In this document: one piece after another, positions 1,371-56,412 of the stretch
Numbering within the stretch: position 1 is the stretch's first letter
How the letters are laid out: each line of letters starts with the position of its first letter
From: an uncultured Methanosarcinales archaeon
Lineage (GTDB): Archaea; Nanobdellota; Nanobdellia; Woesearchaeales; CAYZNE01
Assembly (NCBI GenBank): GCA_964405295.1
Contig: CAYONI010000002.1
Location: 59,133-123,132, forward strand
Reading direction: 5' to 3'
Length of the DNA stretch: 64,000 bases
The notes under the pieces: model-generated
Database searches by the model: none
What the model saw: the letters and a program-made list of their open reading frames with translations, nothing else
Told to the model about the DNA's origin: nothing
Made by a program: the position numbers and the translations under genes

Positions 1371-2720
1371 TTAAATTTTCTTAAATAATATTGAATCAGT
1401 TTCTGTTTCTTGATATCCATACCAGAATTCTATAACTAATGGTGTTTGATAAGCTGTTTGTAGATTTTGGTATTGAACATTATATGTGCATGTAATTATT
1501 CCTTCTCCTGTGTCTTCATCTAGCCTAATAATTCCGTTTGAAGGGCTGCACTCTAATCTTTGGTTTTCAAGATTTACTAAAAATCCTTGAACAACATTCT
1601 CGTGATTTTGCATCAATGGTCCTGTATAGTAAGGGCTGCATCTTGCAATGTGCCCCCAATCTATTACTGTTCCATCACCAATGTTTTTCACGTGAATTGT
1701 AAACCTTACTCTTCTTTTGTCTCCTTCTTGTTCAATTTTTGTGACTGCAACAGGTGCTCCTTGACTAGTTAGTCGTATTGTTCCAGGTGTACAAGTTTTT
1801 CTTTGCTGACTTTCAGGCATTGGATCAATACATACCATTGGTGCAGTATATGTCGCATAACCATAGCAGTTTGTTAACATTAATGGTAGCTTATATTCTT
1901 CTCCTCCTGGTGGCCAGTATTTCATATCAACATGATAATCAATATATTCCATTCCTCCTCCTGGGAAGTATGAGTTGTCTGCAGGTAGTAAGTATTCTTT
2001 TCCAAAGTAAGTTTCAAAGTTAATTGATTCGGCCATTGCAATTGATAGTCCTGCTCCATGATATAATAAGTTAAGATCTAATCCTGTTAGGTTGTCAAAG
2101 TTAAATCCAAATCCTAATATATTATTATTTTCACCACCTAAACTTAAGTCTAAATTGTCAACCCAAGTTGGTGCATCCCAGATTCCCAATTGTCCTAGTA
2201 AGCTTCCTATATTGTTTATATTTGTCGTCCAGAAACCTTCATCTCTAGTGTATTCAAATGAAGAACCATTCATGAATGCACATGATAACAAGCCATTCCA
2301 AGTGTGTAATTCATTGAAGTTGCCAAAACTTGTTATGTCAACTACGCAGTCTCCGCCGGTTTGCCTTTGAAGATCTTGTCCGCTTACTTGTAAAAAACTT
2401 GGCCCGTACCCTGAGATAAATGTTGCACCTCTTGATAGACTTGTTCCTCTATTGTGAACTTTTACAGTAAAGTCAAAAACATTTTCACTTGCACTTCCAC
2501 CTTCGCTGTACCAAACTGTTTTTGGAAGGTTGCTAAATTCTGCTTCAACTCCAACTTTTCCTGTGTAGTATTTTGAACTTGTTCCTTGAACACCAGAATT
2601 TTCTTCTTGATTTGGCAAAAAGCATCCTGATAACATAAAAGAAACCGCTATAAAAAGAATGATGATTAATGTTAGTTTTTTTGAATTCATAATTATCCAC
2701 CTATTATAAGTGATATTCAT
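1371..2720 (-). CDS. secreted lipoprotein-like hypothetical protein
   Basis: Signal peptide ending in lipobox FMLSGC; Gly/Asn-rich. Adjacent to and co-oriented with the previous lipoprotein gene. Confidence 0.5.
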   Translation of the reverse strand: MNITYNRWIIMNSKKLTLIIILFIAVSFMLSGCFLPNQEENSGVQGTSSKYYTGKVGVEAEFSNLPKTVWYSEGGSASENVFDFTVKVHNRGTSLSRGATFISGYGPSFLQVSGQDLQRQTGGDCVVDITSFGNFNELHTWNGLLSCAFMNGSSFEYTRDEGFWTTNINNIGSLLGQLGIWDAPTWVDNLDLSLGGENNNILGFGFNFDNLTGLDLNLLYHGAGLSIAMAESINFETYFGKEYLLPADNSYFPGGGMEYIDYHVDMKYWPPGGEEYKLPLMLTNCYGYATYTAPMVCIDPMPESQQRKTCTPGTIRLTSQGAPVAVTKIEQEGDKRRVRFTIHVKNIGDGTVIDWGHIARCSPYYTGPLMQNHENVVQGFLVNLENQRLECSPSNGIIRLDEDTGEGIITCTYNVQYQNLQTAYQTPLVIEFWYGYQETETDSILFKKI

Positions 2721-2860
2721 CTTTATATTTTATAAACTTTACTAATGATTTTAGCTTTGAAACTTTTTCCTTGATTTTATTAATATTTGTCACTTTCTAG
2801 TAGTTAATAAACGAAAGATTTATAAATTAGTAGTATTTTTTACTACTTTATGGTGATACT

Positions 2861-2998
2861 TTGAAGCATAAGTTAAGTATTTCAGTGGATGAAGAAACAG
2901 TAATTTCTATAATGGAAGCCATGCGAAAAGGTAAATTTCGTAATAAATCACATGCATTCGAGTATGCAGTAAAACAAGTTCTGCGAGGTGATTTATAG
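2861..2998 (+). CDS. ribbon-helix-helix (CopG/Arc-like) small DNA-binding protein
   Basis: 45-aa ORF not in the supplied track (TTG start at 2861 or GTG at 2885). Sequence MKHKLSISVDEETVISIMEAMRKGKFRNKSHAFEYAVKQVLRGDL has a beta-strand plus two helices typical of RHH. Its stop TAG overlaps the GTG start of the kinase ORF (TAGTG). Confidence 0.45.
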   Translation: MKHKLSISVDEETVISIMEAMRKGKFRNKSHAFEYAVKQVLRGDL

Positions 2999-5028
2999 TG
3001 AGTCCGCCAGCTGAACCTGCAAGAAAACTTGAAGAAAGGGTTAATTTTAATGTGTCTGAAGATTTTCAATCTGATAAAATTTTAACTGCTGAAGAGGTTG
3101 CTTTAATTGAGAAAGAAAAGTATATTCTTGGTGAATATGTTAATTCAGGTAATACAAGGGATGTTTTTAGAGCTATTTTTGTGAAAAACGGATTACGTTT
3201 ACCAAGAGTTATTAAAATTGCTAAAAGAAAAAAGGATATTAATCTTGATTCTGTTTGCACTTTGATGAATCTTTCACGACTACCCGAAGGCAATCCTAAT
3301 GTTAACGAATTAGAGGCGCAAAACTCTATTGGTGATCATCCACATATTGCTTCTGTTACTGATAGTTTTTATGTTAATGAAAGGCATGTTGTTGTAGAAG
3401 AGTATGGTGATGGGCCGGATATACAAAGGGATGTTGAAAAAAGGCTAAAAGTTAATGATCTTTATTCTAAAGAAAAATTTATGGATATTTTTAACCAATG
3501 TCTTGATTTAATGAAGGATATGTATTCTGGTCAGGACTATAGATTACATAGAGATATTAAGCCAAGTAATATTATTATTAACAAACTTGGAAGAGTTGTG
3601 TTTACTGATTTTCAAAATGCTAAAAAAGGAGATAATATTGAATTCCAACTTTGGCCTACTAGAGGGGGAACACCTTATACTTCGCCTGATTTACTTAACT
3701 CTTTGTTTACTGGTGAAGAAGCTCATGCTTCAAGGCAAACAGAATTTTACGCTTTAGCTAATACTATGTATTTTGCTTTAACAGGTAAAGAAGCATTTAA
3801 TTATAAAATTAAATTTGATCCTGCTAATGGTAATCCTTTGGAAATAGGTGATAAAACATTTAAGGTCTCTCTTTTTGATGGTGAGAATAAGGTTGATGAA
3901 ATAACATCTGAGATACATCGATCTAATAAGAAGAAAGCTCTTAAAAAATTATCTAAGTATTATCAAAAGTTATTTTCTAAGGCACTTTCATTTGATGATA
4001 CTTTTTTGGATGTTGATGAATTTAGAGAAGAGTTGAAGCAAACTGATAAGCGTTATAAATTTAATTTAGCTGTAAAAAAATATACTAAACCTGCACTTTG
4101 GATTTTGGGTTTGGGGATACCTTTATATTTGGTTCTTAAATTTGCAACGCCTGTTGAATTAAAAGAATATGATTATTCTCCAACACTTAATGATTTGTTA
4201 AGAACTAAAACAAGGATTGTTAGTGAAGTTAATGTTGGTCCACAGGTAATTGCAGGGGGGATCCATATTCCTCTTGATATGGCTACTGATTTAAAACCAT
4301 ATTTAGAAGATGTAAAAAAAGCTTTGATTGATCCTAAATTCATTGAATATTCTAAATTATCTGATTTTATTTCCTCTAGGTCTATCCCAAATGTTAATAT
4401 TGGAAATGAGTTGAATGCAATAATATTTTCTGCTTATAATTTTAGTCAGAAAAAGAAAGTTAATTTGTTTGGTTTTAAAAGAAGTAAAAATTTTTTAGTT
4501 CCTATTGATTTTGTTAAGGCTCGTTTATACAGGGAAAATAATGGAGATAACATGCACTTAAATATGCAATTATATAAGGAACTTAATGATAATAGAATGG
4601 AAATTGTAAATGTAAAAGATTATTTGGTTATGTCTACAAACTTTATAGATTTAAAAGATGGATTTTTAAGGGTTGAAGATGTTTTTGCGAAATATTTTTG
4701 TAGTGATGAAGAAATAATGTTCGCAAAACAAAGATCAGATAATCAAAATTATTTTCCTGTTTTTAAAGAAAACGAAGATGATAAAACTACCAGTCGTTAT
4801 GATGGTTATTCAACTCATCTTCCTTCAAAGAAAAAAGAATTAATTAACCGTGCTCTTGCTTTTTATCTTACTGTTGATGATGAGGGGAATTATAAACAAC
4901 TTATTGAACCTGATTCAACAAAGGTTTATGATTATACTGTTAAAGAAACTCAGAAAAAATCTATGGATGCACAATTTTATGCAGCGGATAATAATCTCAG
5001 AAGAAAGCTGGGAATAAGAAAATTTTAA
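2998..5028 (+). CDS. membrane-anchored Hanks-type Ser/Thr protein kinase-like protein with C-terminal extracytoplasmic domain
   Basis: Gly-rich loop LGEYVNSGNTRDVF, catalytic loop HRDIKPSNIIIN, DFQ in place of DFG, and TPYTSPD (APE-like). A single TM helix (PALWILGLGIPLYLVLKF) around residue 365 is followed by a ~290 aa domain. GTG start. Confidence 0.6.
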   Translation: MSPPAEPARKLEERVNFNVSEDFQSDKILTAEEVALIEKEKYILGEYVNSGNTRDVFRAIFVKNGLRLPRVIKIAKRKKDINLDSVCTLMNLSRLPEGNPNVNELEAQNSIGDHPHIASVTDSFYVNERHVVVEEYGDGPDIQRDVEKRLKVNDLYSKEKFMDIFNQCLDLMKDMYSGQDYRLHRDIKPSNIIINKLGRVVFTDFQNAKKGDNIEFQLWPTRGGTPYTSPDLLNSLFTGEEAHASRQTEFYALANTMYFALTGKEAFNYKIKFDPANGNPLEIGDKTFKVSLFDGENKVDEITSEIHRSNKKKALKKLSKYYQKLFSKALSFDDTFLDVDEFREELKQTDKRYKFNLAVKKYTKPALWILGLGIPLYLVLKFATPVELKEYDYSPTLNDLLRTKTRIVSEVNVGPQVIAGGIHIPLDMATDLKPYLEDVKKALIDPKFIEYSKLSDFISSRSIPNVNIGNELNAIIFSAYNFSQKKKVNLFGFKRSKNFLVPIDFVKARLYRENNGDNMHLNMQLYKELNDNRMEIVNVKDYLVMSTNFIDLKDGFLRVEDVFAKYFCSDEEIMFAKQRSDNQNYFPVFKENEDDKTTSRYDGYSTHLPSKKKELINRALAFYLTVDDEGNYKQLIEPDSTKVYDYTVKETQKKSMDAQFYAADNNLRRKLGIRKF

Positions 5029-5993: not shown

Positions 5994-6027
5994 GATATTA
6001 ATACTCTTACTCATTCCTATTTCTTAG

Positions 6028-6819
6028 ATGTTATCACTTAAGAGTGATTTCAAAGAGGTTAAAATGAAAGAAATAAAACAAATAAAACAAACACAAGTTG
6101 AAAATTTGGTTTCAAACACCATGTTTGCTTATACTAGTTTGTTAGATCTAGATGGTGTTCAATATGAAATGTCTGAATCTTCTGAAAAATTTAAAGGAGT
6201 GGCAAAAGCAACTTTAAACACTGCAGCAGAATTAGGAACTATTGTAGATACATTAATTGGTTTAAATTTACAAACACATAGTGTTACTACAAAGTCCATA
6301 AGAAAATCAAAAGTTTATGATGCAAATGTTAGTGACGAACAAGTAGAAGAAGATTTCAAAGCTTATAAGGTTGAAGTAGAAACAGAAAGAACAAATATAA
6401 ATCAATATTTTGATGGTGAAATAAAGCAAAAGAAATCAAGTGTTGACGAATTTAAAACAGTAATGAAAGATCTTAGAGAAGCTTATACTTCACAAGAGGT
6501 TACTAAAGTTGAAGTCGCAGTTGATGCAGTAAGAAAATCTGCAATTTGGTCAAATGAGATCCAAGTTGATTCATTGTTAGGTGCTGTTAAAAGTATGCAA
6601 ACTTTGGCTACTAAAATTTATGACGGTGGTTTTGAAGATGTGGAAGATGTTAAAAATATTTTAACTGATGCAATTGAAGATTCAAAAGTTGTTGAACAAA
6701 ATTATTTCTTGGGACTTTTCAAAGCAGGGTCTAAGATGGTTGAACCGATTGGTCAAACTTACAAGGGGTCAATAGATTCTGGGGTTATTGCAGAAGAACT
6801 TATGCGGATTAACGCATAA
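6028..6819 (+). CDS. hypothetical acidic coiled-coil protein
   Basis: 263 aa, E/K/V-rich, no recognisable motif; flanked by the 22-bp direct repeat. Confidence 0.4.
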   Translation: MLSLKSDFKEVKMKEIKQIKQTQVENLVSNTMFAYTSLLDLDGVQYEMSESSEKFKGVAKATLNTAAELGTIVDTLIGLNLQTHSVTTKSIRKSKVYDANVSDEQVEEDFKAYKVEVETERTNINQYFDGEIKQKKSSVDEFKTVMKDLREAYTSQEVTKVEVAVDAVRKSAIWSNEIQVDSLLGAVKSMQTLATKIYDGGFEDVEDVKNILTDAIEDSKVVEQNYFLGLFKAGSKMVEPIGQTYKGSIDSGVIAEELMRINA

Positions 6820-6831
6820 TTTTTTATTTTT

Positions 6832-6853
6832 TTAATATTAATAATATCAGTTA
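6832..6853. repeat. 22-bp direct repeat copy 2
   Basis: Exact match to 5972-5993; 13 bp after the stop of ORF 6028..6819. Confidence 0.8.
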
Positions 6854-7140
6854 CATCCTTATAGGCGAGAATGTTACTATTATTCAATGCTTGGGGGAGT
6901 ATTAAAAATGAATTGGTTATTAGCAATAATTGTTATACTTGCAATTCCCTTGTCGATGAAATGGAATTTTGGGTTTAAGAAAAAAGGGGAGAATAGTGTG
7001 ATGAAGTTATTAAATTAGAGATTAAAATGAAAACTAAAACACTATTAATATTTATGATTGTAGGAATTATTTTTTTGAAAGCTTTTGATTTACTTAGGCA
7101 ATTTTTTATTAGAATTAAAACTTTTTAGGAGGTTAAAAAA

Positions 7141-8121
7141 ATGAAAAAAGAATTTTTAGCATTTTTAGCATTATTATTAGGAAGTGTTACAACTTCATAT
7201 GCTTTAGAAGGTAACACAGATTTTCAATTTAATAAAGATGATAAAACAACAGAAAGAACTAATTTGAGTTTAGATAACTTTTCAGCGAACTTTACGACAA
7301 TAACTAAAGATAATAAATTAGAGCTTGTTTCATTCAAGCCTAAAATAAATGCGGATCTTTTTACAGGAAAGGCATACTTGACTATGAGATTTGACAAAAA
7401 GCTTAATGCAGATAATTTACTTCACGTTTCTCCAGGATTTGGGAAATCTGGAATATATATTGAACCTGTTTTTACAACTATCGATGAATTAGGTAATATG
7501 AAAGAGGTTGATTCTTATGCAGGTTTTAATGGAAAAATAGGTAATCAAGATTTAGAAATTGCTGGTATTTATTTAAACCCTGTTGAAGGCGATAATTTAT
7601 CTGCAGGTTATGCTGCAATTAACAATGACAAAATAGGTGCTGGTGTTGTAAAAGAGTATGATGATACTGTTGGTGTGCAATTGGCACTTAATAATGGCAA
7701 GTTTACAGAACTTATGATTGCAGATTATAATTCTGAAACAAAAAAATGGCATGGAAGAGTTTATGTTGCAGAAAATGGTTGCGGCGCTTTAACAACTAAA
7801 GGGCCTTCTAAATTTGGGGCATCAAAAATTGGATGGGATCCTAATGGGCATCCTTATTTTACTTCAACTGCAAATAAATCTTCTGATGGTTTTGCTGCAC
7901 AGTTGAAAGCTCATGGAACTTCTAATACTATTGATGGTTTACTTGCAGAGTTTGGTTATAACTTTGGAAAGTTAAGAGCTTTAATTGGTCAGAAGTTTGA
8001 TGTTAACAATGAAACTTCAACTGCATATGCAACTCTAACTTATGATTTCAAGAACGGTCTTGTTGAAGTTAAGGTTGGTGATGAAGGAGTTTTAGGTGCT
8101 TATGTTAATATGAAATATTGA
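7141..8121 (+). CDS. secreted hypothetical protein
   Basis: Signal peptide MKKEFLAFLALLLGSVTTSYA; SD-like TAGGAGGT upstream. Confidence 0.5.
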   Translation: MKKEFLAFLALLLGSVTTSYALEGNTDFQFNKDDKTTERTNLSLDNFSANFTTITKDNKLELVSFKPKINADLFTGKAYLTMRFDKKLNADNLLHVSPGFGKSGIYIEPVFTTIDELGNMKEVDSYAGFNGKIGNQDLEIAGIYLNPVEGDNLSAGYAAINNDKIGAGVVKEYDDTVGVQLALNNGKFTELMIADYNSETKKWHGRVYVAENGCGALTTKGPSKFGASKIGWDPNGHPYFTSTANKSSDGFAAQLKAHGTSNTIDGLLAEFGYNFGKLRALIGQKFDVNNETSTAYATLTYDFKNGLVEVKVGDEGVLGAYVNMKY

Positions 8122-42072: not shown

Positions 42073-42112
42073 TTATCTGTATGGAAGTAAAATATCCCTC
42101 CCCCCAGACTTG
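42073..42112. repeat. 40-bp direct repeat, tRNA-proximal copy
   Basis: Spans the tRNA-Tyr T-loop to the discriminator base plus 22 nt of 3' flank. Confidence 0.8.
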
Positions 42113-42220
42113 AACCGGGGACCTTTCGGTTACGGCTGGTTATGTTTCATTTCTGTCCTTTCGGGTTAAGATCGCATAACTTCTACAGCCGAACGCTCTA
42201 GCCAACTGAGCTAGGGAGGG
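42095..42220 (-). tRNA. tRNA-Tyr(GTA) with 52-nt bulge-helix-bulge intron at 37/38
   Basis: Minus-strand cloverleaf read by eye. Acceptor CCCTCCC/GGGAGGG gives C1-G72, the archaeal Tyr identity element. D arm TAGCTCAGTTGGCTAGAGCG; anticodon loop CTGTAGA. The intron 3' end CAGCCG pairs with CGGCTG of the anticodon stem-loop. T arm CCCGGTTCAAGTCTGGG; CCA is not encoded. Confidence 0.8.
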
Positions 42221-48958: not shown

Positions 48959-49015
48959 TATTAGATTTTAGAGTGATTTATTTAAAAAGCTTATAGATTT
49001 TTGTTATGTTAAATT

Positions 49016-49202
49016 TAACATCAGGATTAAGAGAAGTTTCTGGAGCGAATTTGGGAAATTTCAGCAGGAAATTTCCTCTTAATTGCTGTTATGTGTTTTT
49101 TCTGCAAGAAAAAAAGCCGAAGGCTCAGTTATTTTCATGTTAATTAATTTCGTCTGAAGAGAGTCTATATATCCGAAGGACGAGGGGGAGTCCAGATTTT
49201 TT
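49016..49202 (+). repeat. structured intergenic repeat unit A (attC-like imperfect hairpin plus GC-rich 3' module)
   Basis: TTAACATCAGGATTAAGAGAAG ... CTCTTAATTGCTGTTATGT, then CCGAAGGACGAGGGGGAGTCC and an oligo-T; homologous to units B-F. Confidence 0.65.
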
Positions 49203-49240
49203 GTTTCTTTTATTAAAAAAAGAAAGTTTACACTAAGATA

Positions 49241-49320
49241 TTAGGGAGGGATTCGAACCCTCGAACCCACTAAGGGAGCAGATTGGTAATCTGCCGAGTT
49301 TGACCACTTCTCTACCCTCA
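49241..49320 (-). pseudogene. tRNA-like fragment (no valid acceptor stem)
   Basis: Minus strand has a D-arm-like segment and stem-loop GCAGA-TTACCAA-TCTGC. Its T arm GAGGGTTCGAATCCCTC shares a 17-mer TCGAGGGTTCGAATCCC with tRNA-Arg and an 11-mer ATCCCTCCCTA with tRNA-Tyr. The 5' and 3' ends cannot pair. Confidence 0.3.
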
Positions 49321-49348
49321 TATAAAATGTATGAGAATTAACTTGAGG

Positions 49349-49819
49349 TTATATTTTTTCTTCAAATAGTTCAATTAATAAATCATATACAGATTTGAAT
49401 TTTTTAAATCTTTTAGGTTCTTTAATTGATTTTTTTATAAACTCAATGTCCATTTCTTTTATTTTATTAATCATATCTCTACTTAAATTTGGTTTTTTAT
49501 CTTTGTATATTGGCCTGACTTTATGACATCCTAAGAAATCTTCAATTTCTTCTTCATTAAAATAAATAAATTTTTTAAGACCTTCCATTTCTGAGGTTAT
49601 AGTTTTCTCTTTTTTAAAAACATCTGAATCGAAAATAAATATAGTTTCGCTATCGATTCCCTTTAATTGTTGAAATTTTTCATCCATCTTTTGAGATTTA
49701 GTTATGGCATTATTTAAATCTCCTATTGCTTTAGGATGAAATTTTAATGTGTAATTACTGGATACAAATTTATTACCTTTTAAAGCCTTTAAAATAATTT
49801 TTTTCAGAAGGACCTTCAT
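49349..49819 (-). CDS. small partner protein of the AAA_21 ATPase (hypothetical)
   Basis: 156 aa, 20 bp downstream of the ATPase on the same strand; contains ETIFIFDSD acidic motif. Confidence 0.35.
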   Translation of the reverse strand: MKVLLKKIILKALKGNKFVSSNYTLKFHPKAIGDLNNAITKSQKMDEKFQQLKGIDSETIFIFDSDVFKKEKTITSEMEGLKKFIYFNEEEIEDFLGCHKVRPIYKDKKPNLSRDMINKIKEMDIEFIKKSIKEPKRFKKFKSVYDLLIELFEEKI

Positions 49820-49839
49820 AGAAAATGTAAATTACTTTT

Positions 49840-51045
49840 TTAATCTTCTTTATAGACATTTGGGAATCCTCCTAATACACCCTCTCTATAATAATCACCA
49901 TAGTTTTTGTTAATTTTGGGGTTATTCTTGACTATATTATGAAGATTAATTATTTTACTAACAGAATCTTCTTTTTCAATTATATTTATTTGATCACTTC
50001 TTAAATAATTAAGGATTTCTGGTTGATGAGTTGTAAATAATAATTGAGATTTATTGTCTTTTTTTGTAAAGTAATTTATAATAAATTCAACTATTTCAAT
50101 ATTAAAAGATGTTTCAATTTCATCATAAAGTATAATGGAATCCTTATTCAATTTGAATAGTGTGAAAAATAGTAATATGAACTTTTTAGTTCCACTTGAT
50201 TCTCCATTGAAATTTATTTTTAAATCTGCTTTATTGTGTTTATGTATTAAAATTAAATCTGTTACTGGCACTTTTTTTGTGGGTTGTTTTATAATTTCTT
50301 CATTATTTATTTTATATTCAATTTCTTCTCTAACTGATTTAACTAATTCTAAATCTTTTATCGAAAAATCAGCATATGTTAGAACATCTAATAATTCTTC
50401 CTTTAATCCTGAATCTTTTAACAAAGAGAAATCGGGGGGTTGATTAAATAAATTATTCGCTACAAATAGTTTAGTAAAAAAATCATATATTGGTTTTAAT
50501 GTGGCTGAGTTTAATTGCACCGCTCTTGATAACATTAAAGTTTGAGGAATGACACTTTTAGATAATATTTTTAATTCTTTTTCATATTTTCGATTGCTGA
50601 ATTCGAATTTTTTATTAGTTTTATTTTCGTTTCTTAAAAAAATTTCAGTCGGTTTTTGTGTTTGATAAACTACTGCATACTCTTTTATAATTTTTTTATT
50701 AGTATACGAGAATCCATAAATGTATTTTTTATTGTTTGAAAAAAATGTAATCTCAAATTCTGTTGGTTTATCTGGCGTGCTAATAAATGGTGAATATTTT
50801 ATATTTGTATCTATATTATGTTTTTGGGAATTTAAAACCATTTCTTTCATAAAATTTAATGCTGAAAGTAGAGATGTCTTTCCAGATCCATTAACTCCTA
50901 CGAGTCCAGATATTTTTAAAGTATCTATATTATTTTGCTGATTAATAAATTGTTCTCCTCTACTTTCTTTTGATTTTTTTTCAAATTTCAAAATTTCTTC
51001 ATTTTTATATGAATTAAAGTTTTTTAGTTTAAATTCGATTATCAT
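49840..51045 (-). CDS. AAA_21/AAA_15-type ABC-like ATPase (defence-associated family)
   Basis: Walker A GLVGVNGSGKTS, signature-like NGESSGTKKF, Walker B ILYDEIETS, H-loop LLFTTHQPE. Confidence 0.7.
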   Translation of the reverse strand: MIIEFKLKNFNSYKNEEILKFEKKSKESRGEQFINQQNNIDTLKISGLVGVNGSGKTSLLSALNFMKEMVLNSQKHNIDTNIKYSPFISTPDKPTEFEITFFSNNKKYIYGFSYTNKKIIKEYAVVYQTQKPTEIFLRNENKTNKKFEFSNRKYEKELKILSKSVIPQTLMLSRAVQLNSATLKPIYDFFTKLFVANNLFNQPPDFSLLKDSGLKEELLDVLTYADFSIKDLELVKSVREEIEYKINNEEIIKQPTKKVPVTDLILIHKHNKADLKINFNGESSGTKKFILLFFTLFKLNKDSIILYDEIETSFNIEIVEFIINYFTKKDNKSQLLFTTHQPEILNYLRSDQINIIEKEDSVSKIINLHNIVKNNPKINKNYGDYYREGVLGGFPNVYKED

Positions 51046-51261
51046 ATGGTTAAGAAATCAATCAATATATATAAATGTTGTTGTTTTTTACACTAATTTT
51101 GCTTTATCTTTTAGATATTGGCAGTAAATGAGAAAATATTGCAATTTTGTTGTGTTTCATAATTGATTTCGAATAAATTTATTGTGAGCCTAAATGTGTG
51201 TAGCACGGACTCTCCCTCTTTTGGTTCTTTTTCTAAAAGAACATAAAGTGAAAATTCGATT

Positions 51262-51433
51262 GAGTATAACATCGCGATTAAGAGAAGTTTTTGCGAAGCA
51301 AAAATTTGGATGGAAGAAACTGCAAGTTTCTGGAATCTCTTAATCGCTGTTATGTCTGTCGAAACTTGTTTCGACCAAGGGTTAGTGCAACGGTCGGCGA
51401 AGCCGAAACCCGCAGAGTTTTTCTTGAGTCCCG
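51262..51433 (+). repeat. structured intergenic repeat unit B
   Basis: GAGTATAACATCGCGATTAAGAGAAG pairs with TCTCTTAATCGCTGTTATGT (2-nt bulge). Internal hairpin TTTTTGCGAAGCAAAAA, then GTGCAACGG..GCGAAGCCGAAACCC, ending in TTTTTCTTGAGTCCC. Confidence 0.7.
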
Positions 51434-52538: not shown

Positions 52539-53123
52539 ATGGTTGAATTTACAACAGAAAATCTTGGAAGAATACTTATTAATCGACTTAGAGAAAATAA
52601 TAATTTTGACGAAATATTATCAATAGTGAAAAGCAATTCCAGAGGGAATATTTATCTCGTTGGGGGAACTGTTAGTCGAACTTTAGCTAGTGAGTTATAT
52701 GGTGGAGAACAGAAAAATCAAGATTTTGATTTTGTTGTTGATGTATTAAATAGTGATTTAAAGATTCCAAAAGGTTGGGTGGTTACACACCATAAATTTG
52801 ACAATCCAACATTCAAGAAAGATGATCTTGAAATAGATCTATTTCCGTTATCTGACCACCAATATATCAAAAATAATAAACTGAAACCAACTATTGAAAA
52901 CTTTTTGGCAGGAGTTCCATTTTCAATTCAATCACTCGTTTTTGATATAAAAAATGAAAGATTAATTGGAGATGATGGAATTCAAGCTTTAAAGAATCGT
53001 AAATTCAAAGTTCATAACATAGATTCTGCAAAAGATGTTGCAAAACGTAAAGGAATTTCAATAAATGAACGAATGTTGCAAAAAGCTAAAAGTATGAACT
53101 TTGATATAATTCCATTCGATTAA
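52539..53123 (+). CDS. nucleotidyltransferase-fold (Pol beta superfamily) protein
   Basis: IYLVGGTVSR ... DFDFVVD resembles the hG[GS] ... DxD NTase motif. Confidence 0.4.
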   Translation: MVEFTTENLGRILINRLRENNNFDEILSIVKSNSRGNIYLVGGTVSRTLASELYGGEQKNQDFDFVVDVLNSDLKIPKGWVVTHHKFDNPTFKKDDLEIDLFPLSDHQYIKNNKLKPTIENFLAGVPFSIQSLVFDIKNERLIGDDGIQALKNRKFKVHNIDSAKDVAKRKGISINERMLQKAKSMNFDIIPFD

Positions 53124-55433: not shown

Positions 55434-55490
55434 TAATTTTGCCCCGTAACGATTGAGTATAACATATATTAGGCCTAGTTTGTTAGTGCC
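55434..55490 (+). repeat. mini repeat unit F
   Basis: TAATTTTGCCCC (inverted copy of unit E's end), then GAGTATAACAT ... TAGGCCTA ... TTGTTAG hairpin. Confidence 0.5.
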
Positions 55491-55512
55491 TAATTATAGT
55501 TAATATATGCTA

Positions 55513-55531
55513 ATTCGGAAGAATTCCGAAT
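55513..55531. promoter_or_regulatory. hairpin ATTCGGAA-GAA-TTCCGAAT 45 bp upstream of the recombinase gene
   Basis: 8-bp perfect inverted arms with a 3-nt spacer. Confidence 0.35.
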
Positions 55532-55575
55532 GGCTAGGGCTTAATATTATTAAGATTAAGTAGATAACTTCTTAT

Positions 55576-56412
55576 ATGGATTATATGTTAGATGAAGCTA
55601 AAAAACAGGATTATCTGCAGAGAATTGCTGATGAGTGTAAATTAAGGGGTTTTAGCAGGCAAACTTTGAAAGCTTATTCTTATTGGATTGCAAAATATTT
55701 GGATTTTATTATTAAAAATAGGTTTAATTTGGGAAATTCTAGTGTTAGGTATTATTTCCTAAGTTTAGATTTGAGTGTGAATTCTTCAAGATTATGCTAT
55801 GCAGCTCTAAGATTTTTCTTCGCTAATATTCTGAACAGACCTTTTACAACCGATGAAATTCCTATTAAGAAGAAAGAAAAAACTTTGCCTAAAGTATTAT
55901 CTAAGCAACAAATTAAATTAATATTAAATGAAACCAAAAATCTTAAACATAAACTAGTTATTGAGGTGCTTTATTCAACTGGGTTGAGATTGCAAGAATT
56001 AATTAATCTTAAAAGAGCTGATATTGATTTTGATAATAATACTTTGTTTGTTAGAAAAGGCAAAGGTAAGAAGGATAGACTCACAATTATTTCTGAAAAT
56101 ATTAAATTAGATTTATTAAAATATTATAGTCAATACGAATTTAAAACAAATTATGTGTTTGAAGGTAGAAAGGGTAAATATTCTAAAAAGTCTGTTCAAT
56201 TAATTCTACACAATACAAGTAAAAAACTTAAATTTAGAATTCATCCTCATATGTTAAGACACTCTTTTGCAACTCATTTATTAGAGCAGGGAACTGACAT
56301 AAGAATTATACAGAAGCTTCTTGGCCATTCTGATCTTAACACAACAGAAATTTACACAAGAGTTGCAAATAAGAATTTAAAGAAAATCAAGAATCCTCTA
56401 GATAGTATTTAA
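55576..56412 (+). CDS. tyrosine recombinase (XerA/XerC/D family)
   Basis: C-terminal catalytic region HPHMLRHSFATHLLEQGTDIRIIQKLLGHSDLNTTEIYTRV (R..H..R..Y); N-terminal core-binding domain. Confidence 0.85.
   Translation: MDYMLDEAKKQDYLQRIADECKLRGFSRQTLKAYSYWIAKYLDFIIKNRFNLGNSSVRYYFLSLDLSVNSSRLCYAALRFFFANILNRPFTTDEIPIKKKEKTLPKVLSKQQIKLILNETKNLKHKLVIEVLYSTGLRLQELINLKRADIDFDNNTLFVRKGKGKKDRLTIISENIKLDLLKYYSQYEFKTNYVFEGRKGKYSKKSVQLILHNTSKKLKFRIHPHMLRHSFATHLLEQGTDIRIIQKLLGHSDLNTTEIYTRVANKNLKKIKNPLDSI

Follow-up and report, generated by a model that had tools for sequence, protein, structure and literature searches.

An AbiL/RloAB-type gene pair with a frameshifted nuclease gene and an adjoining tRNA-like element in an attC-bounded cassette of a DPANN archaeon

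A two-gene operon in an archaeal contig raises the question of which family of defence systems, if any, it belongs to, and whether the tRNA-like element beside it forms part of the same system. The operon lies in the window, by which we mean the whole stretch of 64,000 nucleotides that was analysed (contig CAYONI010000002.1 of assembly GCA_964405295.1, positions 59,133 to 123,132), from an uncultured archaeon placed in Woesearchaeales; the window has about 30% G+C, and Dph2- and TYW1-like open reading frames (ORFs), read by eye from the translations, serve as archaeal markers, as does an intron-containing tRNA. A preliminary description had seen here an AAA_15/AAA_21-type ATPase with a small partner as cargo of a cassette array, and had proposed a candidate two-gene defence module, listing PARIS, Septu, Gabija and AbiL-like pairs. 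Our results make it very probable that the locus is an archaeal member of AbiL/RloAB, one branch of the OLD-like defence systems in which an ABC ATPase has a Toprim nuclease as partner, carried as a self-contained mobile cassette whose nuclease gene is here broken. The features of the cassette are collected in Table 1.

Table 1. Features of the AbiL-type cassette, in positions of the window
Feature	Position	Strand	Remarks
attC-like site 1, left cassette boundary	49011..49098	+	Covariance model (CM) 75.6 bits; predicted crossover between G and TT, 49088/49089
Whole cassette, about 2.26 kb	49089..51349	+	Cargo reversed relative to the top strand of the array
T-rich palindromic hairpin after the tRNA-like element	49203..49226	-	CTTTCTTTTTTT..AAAAGAAAC; kept in L005, L013 and L014
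tRNA-like RNA gene	49237..49322	-	Full cloverleaf, anticodon ACC; found by ARAGORN and Rfam tRNA
abiLii/RloB-type Toprim nuclease gene, in two segments owing to a 1-nt frameshift	49349..49859	-	5' segment 49773-49859, 3' segment 49349-49819
Frameshift site	49776..49785	-	CTTTAAAAGG; the run of T or that of A is one base too long, and TAA TAA follows in the upstream frame
abiLi-type ABC ATPase gene (Rad50/SMC-like, AAA_21)	49840..51045	-	401 aa, intact ORF
TATA-like box	51066..51075	-	TTTATATATA; precedes the ATPase ATG by 21-30 nt
Matching palindromic hairpin	51219..51242	-	GTTCTTTTAGAAAAAGAACCAAAA; between attC-like site 2 and the ATPase promoter
attC-like site 2, the cassette's own	51262..51359	+	CM 107.9 bits; GTTATGT 51349-51355

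The ATPase and its split partner gene

All nucleotide-binding motifs that had been read in the ATPase are present (GSGKTS in Walker A, the signature ESSGTKKF, ILYDEIETS in Walker B and the H-loop THQPE), and the protein is a Rad50/SMC-type head. Among the PADLOC models it matched AbiLi (PDLC02335) at 1.5e-62, the best of the others being AriA at 1.3e-30, with PtuA and GajA at 1.6e-11 or weaker; Pfam AAA_21 was matched at 1.8e-29 (104 bits, cut-off 27). The preliminary description had named a placement of the ATPase with housekeeping ABC or RecF-like proteins, and of the partner with an unrelated housekeeping family, as the result that would overturn it. The NCBIfam models for RecF, SufC and ABC transporters all scored far below their cut-offs on this protein, and most of these housekeeping matches, namely those of RecF and the transporters, were confined to the Walker A region. 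An AlphaFold2 model (predicted local distance difference test score 91.8) had its best Foldseek matches in Rad50 and in the PtuA heads of Septu and Retron-Eco7/Ec78 (PtuA at about 1e-10), and a profile of the ATPase family, compared with PDB sequences, ranked AriA first (3.6e-5), followed by Smc and PtuA. No Toprim domain is fused to the polypeptide.

The partner gene had been described as a co-oriented 156-aa ORF, 20 nt downstream of the ATPase gene, with an ETIFIFDSD motif and no other match. The ORF exists as described (49349-49819, minus strand), and as annotated it gave nothing meaningful against Pfam, NCBIfam or PADLOC, which led us to read the frame upstream. It turned out to be only the back part of the gene: the true start, at 49859, lies within the last codons of the ATPase gene (20-nt overlap with the ATPase stop), and the frame is broken by an extra base. 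The 5' segment of 28 codons encodes MSIKKIKKVIYIFYEGPSEKNYFKGFKR up to its stop, the N-terminal part that the partner family conserves, with the EGxSE motif, while the 3' segment is the one read by the 156-aa ORF and holds the DSD motif. Intact homologues of the partner, 160-175 aa long, begin with the same N-terminus and continue in the frame of the 156-aa ORF; one of them, P0002 (169 aa), aligns over its full length with the repaired partner, also of 169 aa, at 70% identity. The repaired protein matched PADLOC AbiLii at 3e-08, so that the earlier statement of no other match holds for the truncated ORF but not for the whole protein. Pfam RloB did not match the repaired partner, and P0002 likewise fell short of it; membership is therefore shown through the family, in which PADLOC AbiLii was found in 35 of the 36 members and Pfam RloB (PF13707) in 19, and some homologues bear the NCBI name "RloB domain-containing protein". 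The family is of RloB/AbiLii type: it carries EGxSE, the Toprim Glu motif, and DSD, the DxD motif, and its predicted fold is OLD-nuclease-like; residues E15, D77 and D79 vary little or not at all across it. A model of the partner compared with PDB by Foldseek gave nothing at E <= 0.001, and the partner profile had zero matches among PDB sequences.

The frameshift was located by comparing codons with five homologues (L005, L009, L013, L014 and L026). Where these have TTA AAA GGT AAT the window has CTTTAAAAGGTAAT, which amounts to one extra base at 49776-49785. The extra base is also found in four other assemblies (L001-L004), identical in sequence. Since the shift parts the predicted catalytic Glu from the part with the DxD motif, this cassette probably yields no effector; it was most likely disabled recently.

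Both ORFs belong to real genes with many homologues, as had been assumed. Two groups make up the ATPase homologues: those of DPANN form a tight set (45-75% identity), and bacterial proteins, some of them named RloA, follow at about 30%. The closest named relatives of the studied genes come from metagenome-assembled genomes (MAGs) of Nanoarchaeota, Woesearchaeota and Aenigmarchaeota, which marks the host as an archaeon of DPANN type. The partner follows the ATPase with an overlap of 17-23 nt in L005-L010, L013-L019, L022-L024 and L026, the exceptions without partner being L011 and L012 (truncated copy). Of 15 relatives fetched, 13 have an intact partner homologue after the ATPase gene. The window locus thus has an ATPase of the AbiL/RloAB family with an adjacent, co-oriented AbiLii/RloB-type partner; of the two genes the ATPase gene is intact and abiLii is split by the one-nt insertion.

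Our searches of relatives also brought up loci of a different kind. In L011 (6001-7158, a Candidatus Paceibacter MAG, that is, a bacterium of the candidate phyla radiation) the ATPase is 43% identical and no RloB partner was detected downstream, which hints at cross-domain spread among ultra-small episymbionts. A contig of 3.6 kb (L024) carries two AAA_21 and RloB pairs back to back (30-1605 and 2061-3627), one of the AbiL family studied here and the other made of a divergent 431-aa ATPase and an RloB gene. A scan of viral contigs for the ATPase returned a single locus (L020, IMGVR_UViG_3300037851_000436, 6001-7197, 61% identity), in a contig of 42 kb that IMG/VR lists as viral, with a Cas4-like nuclease ORF (cysteine-cluster motif, by eye) just upstream of the ATPase; no tRNA-like element was found there, and no attC-like site at E 0.1.

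Upstream of the ATPase gene, TTTATATATA is probably the cassette's own archaeal promoter, which would give a leaderless or short-leader mRNA: AACATTTATATA is kept at equal distance before the ATPase ATG in L009, L013 and L014. At the other end, the hairpin at 49203-49226 is likely a terminator, judging from its sequence. The two hairpins that bracket the module have the form TTCTTTT..AAAAAGAA followed by CAAAA, a form kept in L005, L009 and L014, and the 12-mers after them (51207-51218 and 49182-49193; GAGGGAGAGTCC and GGACTCCCCCTC) are near reverse complements; the hairpins may insulate the module as terminators, or an older insertion may have had its ends there. A 53-aa ORF at 51111-51272 was rejected as a gene, having no convincing conservation beyond the identical assemblies, and is probably spurious.

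The cassette and its array

The array that had been described is real: there are five copies of TAACATCAGGATTAAGAGAAGT with at most three mismatches, where 0 would be expected. Five strong repeats and a weak one begin at 49011, 51262, 52268, 53162, 54856 and 55455. All six sites fold as long imperfect hairpins with TAAC...GTTA ends and a 2-nt GA bulge on the 3' arm of the minus strand. A CM built from the window's own sites, and not a curated attC model, gave 76-108 bits to five of them and found none elsewhere in the window; the sixth, at 55455-55559, scored 17.7 bits and is a short palindrome directly in front of a recombinase gene. The hairpins that bound the gene pair are therefore of the attC type: imperfect, ending in RYYYAAC / GTTRRRY, and with extrahelical bases in one strand only.

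It is the bottom strand of an attC site that recombines, and its R''-L'' arm is where the extrahelical bases are found; the position of the bulge accordingly makes the plus strand the top strand of the array. The plus-strand ORFs (SurE, a 194-aa ORF, a prenyltransferase-like ORF and PHA_gran_rgn) end 14-36 nt before a site. The opposite assignment, with minus as the top strand and the recombinase divergent as in canonical integrons, was rejected, given the extra bases on the plus left arm and the plus-strand ORFs that end before sites.

The same reversed, attC-flanked layout was found in L014, L009, L005, L021 and L022, where the sites are independent; the array of L021, whose cargo includes Fic and a transposase, has five or six sites. 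Since the neighbours differ between genomes (Nanoarchaeota/Woesearchaeota), the cassette appears to be mobile, and these differing neighbours make its excision and insertion by a recombinase a candidate activity. The nearest recombinase gene, and the only one nearby, lies at 55576-56412, at the far end of the array and co-oriented with the top strand. It encodes a XerA-type protein of 278 aa, which scored 217 bits with XerA NF040815 (cut-off 220) and 186 bits with TIGR02249 (cut-off 265), the latter match being broken at the insert; no integron integrase with the IntI-specific additional domain stands beside the array. The pair had been called the first cargo of the array, which is true in window coordinates, but seen from the only recombinase gene no cassette lies farther away. 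Arrays of cassettes in archaea, most of them lacking IntI and with phage-resistance and toxin-antitoxin cargo among their contents, have already been described (PMC9668308).

The other cargo of the array looks like housekeeping (SurE, the prenyltransferase-like ORF, TrmB and PHA_gran_rgn). The 194-aa ORF (52539-53123, plus strand) had no Pfam or NCBIfam match, and by eye it shows a GGxxSR...DFDF pattern resembling minimal nucleotidyltransferases. Beside the AbiL cassette of L014, another cassette (2534-4105) encodes a protein of 523 aa that by eye resembles a DUF262/DUF1524 (GmrSD-type) nuclease, which suggests that defence cargo clusters in such arrays.

AbiL has been placed among the systems that combine an ABC ATPase with a TOPRIM protein (PMC11464382; PMC13064643), and its founding member was identified through phage resistance (PMC13064643). 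Effectors of the related PARIS (PMC11464382), P2 OLD (PMC12445682) and Retron-Eco7 PtuAB (PMC12673091) cut tRNA, and those of all three are neutralised by viral tRNAs (PMC11464382; PMC12445682; PMC12673091). If the archaeal pair works like PARIS, P2 OLD and Retron-Eco7/Septu, an ATPase oligomer would keep the nuclease inactive and sense infection; on a trigger, the Toprim nuclease would be released or activated and would cut nucleic acid, by analogy most likely tRNA, whereupon translation would stop and the infection would be aborted.

Assignment of the pair to PARIS, Septu or Gabija, or to a housekeeping ABC/RecF-type ATPase with an unrelated neighbour, is extremely improbable. The weaker PADLOC matches to AriA, PtuA and GajA and the top Foldseek ranks of Rad50 and PtuA point that way, but the partner matched AbiLii only: it had no match to AriB or DUF4435 in Pfam or PADLOC, to HNH or PtuB, or to the GajB model. 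Together with the separate Toprim protein and the low RecF, SufC and transporter scores, this leaves AbiL as the one system borne out among those that the preliminary description listed; its wider proposal, an AAA_15/21 ATPase with a Toprim-like partner as a two-gene defence module in a cassette, is supported as well. That the pair serves chiefly to stabilise the cassette array, as a toxin-antitoxin-like addiction module, is rather unlikely. The pair is reversed in the array and seemingly has its own promoter, PARIS acts as a toxin-antitoxin pair (PMC13064643), and integrons of archaea and bacteria often carry toxin-antitoxin cassettes (PMC9668308); against this stand the discovery of the founding AbiL by phage resistance, although the two roles are not exclusive, and the fact that the presumed toxin gene is the one broken here, which an addiction module would easily tolerate. 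It is highly unlikely that the split gene still yields a nuclease, whether ribosomes slip by +1 at UUU-AAA-AGG-UAA or the two fragments complement each other. Neither segment has further stops, the N-terminal 27 residues are identical to P0002 at 20 positions, and at the shift site AGG and a stop codon come after a homopolymer run, yet any one-base insertion in the run would yield the same sequence. The extra base is missing in all five codon-compared homologues, and every partner homologue found is one uninterrupted ORF; the site is therefore not a conserved recoding site, and programmed frameshifting is unlikely. What weighs against an AbiL-type system with a disabled nuclease is of another sort. 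The frameshift could be an assembly or consensus error shared by L001-L004, which are maybe built from the same reads; if CTTAAAAGG or TTAAAAGG stood at 49776-49785 instead of CTTTAAAAGG, the break would be an assembly error and the system intact. In addition, the nucleic-acid target is drawn purely from analogy, the archaeal AbiL members are known from sequence, and the mechanism of AbiL is unsolved even in Lactococcus (PMC13064643).

The tRNA-like element

The element next to the pair had been called a tRNA-like fragment. It is present, and it is no fragment, since it forms a full, conserved cloverleaf. Its score with the Rfam tRNA model is 38.8 bits (gathering score 29), and those of L014, L026 and L013 are 38-40 bits, while the copies of L005 and L009 are below the threshold. 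D loop and T loop are canonical and the variable arm is long (13 nt). The acceptor stem is rich in A and U; a G-A mismatch is fixed in it, its 3' strand lacks one nt, and 79% of its cells are paired. Across the copies the anticodon is ACC, GCC, GTC or deleted, so that neither a regular 7-bp acceptor stem nor the anticodon is kept among orthologues. An ordinary tRNA-Gly was ruled out by the acceptor stem, the long variable arm and the changing anticodon. Elsewhere in the window, at 42095-42220 on the minus strand, Rfam detected (47.4 bits) a genuine tRNA that ARAGORN missed; its intron measures about 52-55 nt.

The element is kept in six cassettes (the window, L005, L009, L013, L014 and L026), 26-45 nt after the partner stop, with a nucleotide identity of 78-90%; the ATPase gene reaches 74-76% and the partner gene 63-67%. 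Over the six copies 89.5% of the stem cells are paired and three pairs show compensatory change. Two of these pairs are in the anticodon stem, which is 100% paired and passes from GCAGA/TCTGC to GTAGA/TCTAC to ATAGA/TCTAT; the third is in the T stem. The compensatory changes include one from GAGGG/CCCTC to GCGGG/CCCGC. The GG of the D loop and the UUCGAAU of the T loop are kept across the copies. We did not find the element in L022, L016-L019, L006-L008, L010 or the deeper branches, and a scan of viral contigs for its core gave zero matches; in L022 an ORF for a membrane protein takes its place, though the ATPase of this locus groups with that of L013 in the ATPase tree. Conservation, compensatory changes and absence in relatives together point to a selected but dispensable accessory. 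In the window copy the paired anticodon stem (49274-49290, GCAGA/UCUGC) forms a CNG/CNG pseudo-palindrome, and copies with GUAGA/UCUAC do not have the motif. CNG/CNG is the reported cleavage motif of P2 OLD in tRNA anticodon stems (PMC12445682); the match may be a coincidence.

The element has about an even chance of being a passive relic (the remnant of an integration-site tRNA or a hitch-hiking pseudo-tRNA) or a signal for 3'-end processing or termination. Its acceptor stem is defective where the genuine tRNAs of the window have GC-rich 7-bp stems, its anticodon differs between copies or is deleted, it has been lost repeatedly, and an oligo-T hairpin directly follows it. A relic, on the other hand, should not outdo the neighbouring coding genes in conservation or show compensatory changes in its stems, and a role as processing signal would itself count as function. 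It is possible, if doubtful, that an AbiL subclade has evolved a three-part system in which the tRNA-like RNA works with the ATPase-Toprim pair, as a substrate mimic or antitoxin decoy, as a bait that senses viral alteration, or as a cleavage-resistant spare tRNA that limits self-damage. Such a role would fit the fixed place of the element after the partner stop in six cassettes, its rank as the best-conserved segment of the cassette, and the compensated pairs and retained loop motifs. The tRNA cutting by PARIS, P2 OLD and Retron-Eco7, effectors of a related class that viral tRNAs neutralise, makes a functional link plausible but unproven, and Retron-Septu offers a structured nucleic acid that restrains an ABC ATPase-nuclease pair (PMC12673091). 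Against it are the patchy distribution, the two copies below the Rfam threshold, which suggest decay, and the small sample of six sequences.

Comparison with known systems

The pair itself is an ordinary defence module, here probably broken, and its novelty is modest: it extends AbiL/RloAB to DPANN archaea, where it appears to move as a self-promoted, reversed cassette in integron-like arrays whose only recombinase close by is of XerA type. If any part proves to be new biology, it would be the tRNA-like companion alone. A three-part system, if true, would be the first host-encoded tRNA mimic in OLD-like defence and would point to tRNA as the target of AbiL, and the natural set of variants (cassettes with and without the tRNA-like gene, one of them frameshifted) could serve to test tRNA targeting by an RloB-type Toprim protein.

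The nearest known systems are AbiL of Lactococcus lactis (AbiLi/AbiLii) and RloA/RloB of Campylobacter jejuni, which have the same operon of an ATPase followed by an RloB-type Toprim gene; both PADLOC models match the window pair. Unlike these, the window pair comes from a DPANN archaeon and lies in an attC-bounded cassette, whereas AbiL and RloAB are found on a plasmid or in a type I restriction-modification locus. The partners of the window family are short (160-175 aa) and divergent, about half of them reaching Pfam RloB; a tRNA-like gene is attached in the subclade of the window, and the window copy is frameshifted.

PARIS shares the arrangement of an ABC ATPase as sensor or scaffold with a separate Toprim effector, its AriA is the best PDB sequence match, and it is the source of the logic borrowed here (a sequestered nuclease and a tRNA target); in contrast to PARIS, the window partner is of RloB type and not DUF4435, and the ATPase is about 60 residues shorter (401 against 464 in AriA). 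In P2 OLD and in class 1 and class 2 OLD proteins the ATPase and Toprim domains are fused, while the window has two proteins. Septu and Retron-Eco7 (PtuA-PtuB with multicopy single-stranded DNA) resemble the window system in their PtuA-like ATPase head and provide a precedent for a nucleic acid that restrains a tRNA-degrading pair, but PtuB is an HNH nuclease, and the window system has no reverse transcriptase. Finally, the array resembles integron cassettes, including those of the archaeal integrons (Ghaly et al. 2022), in its tandem cassettes and imperfect TAAC...GTTA hairpins with a 2-nt bulge on one strand; phage-resistance and toxin-antitoxin cargo has been reported in archaeal (PMC9668308) and bacterial integrons. 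It differs from them in its recombinase, a XerA-type protein of 278 aa without the IntI insert, encoded at the far end of the array and co-oriented with the top strand.

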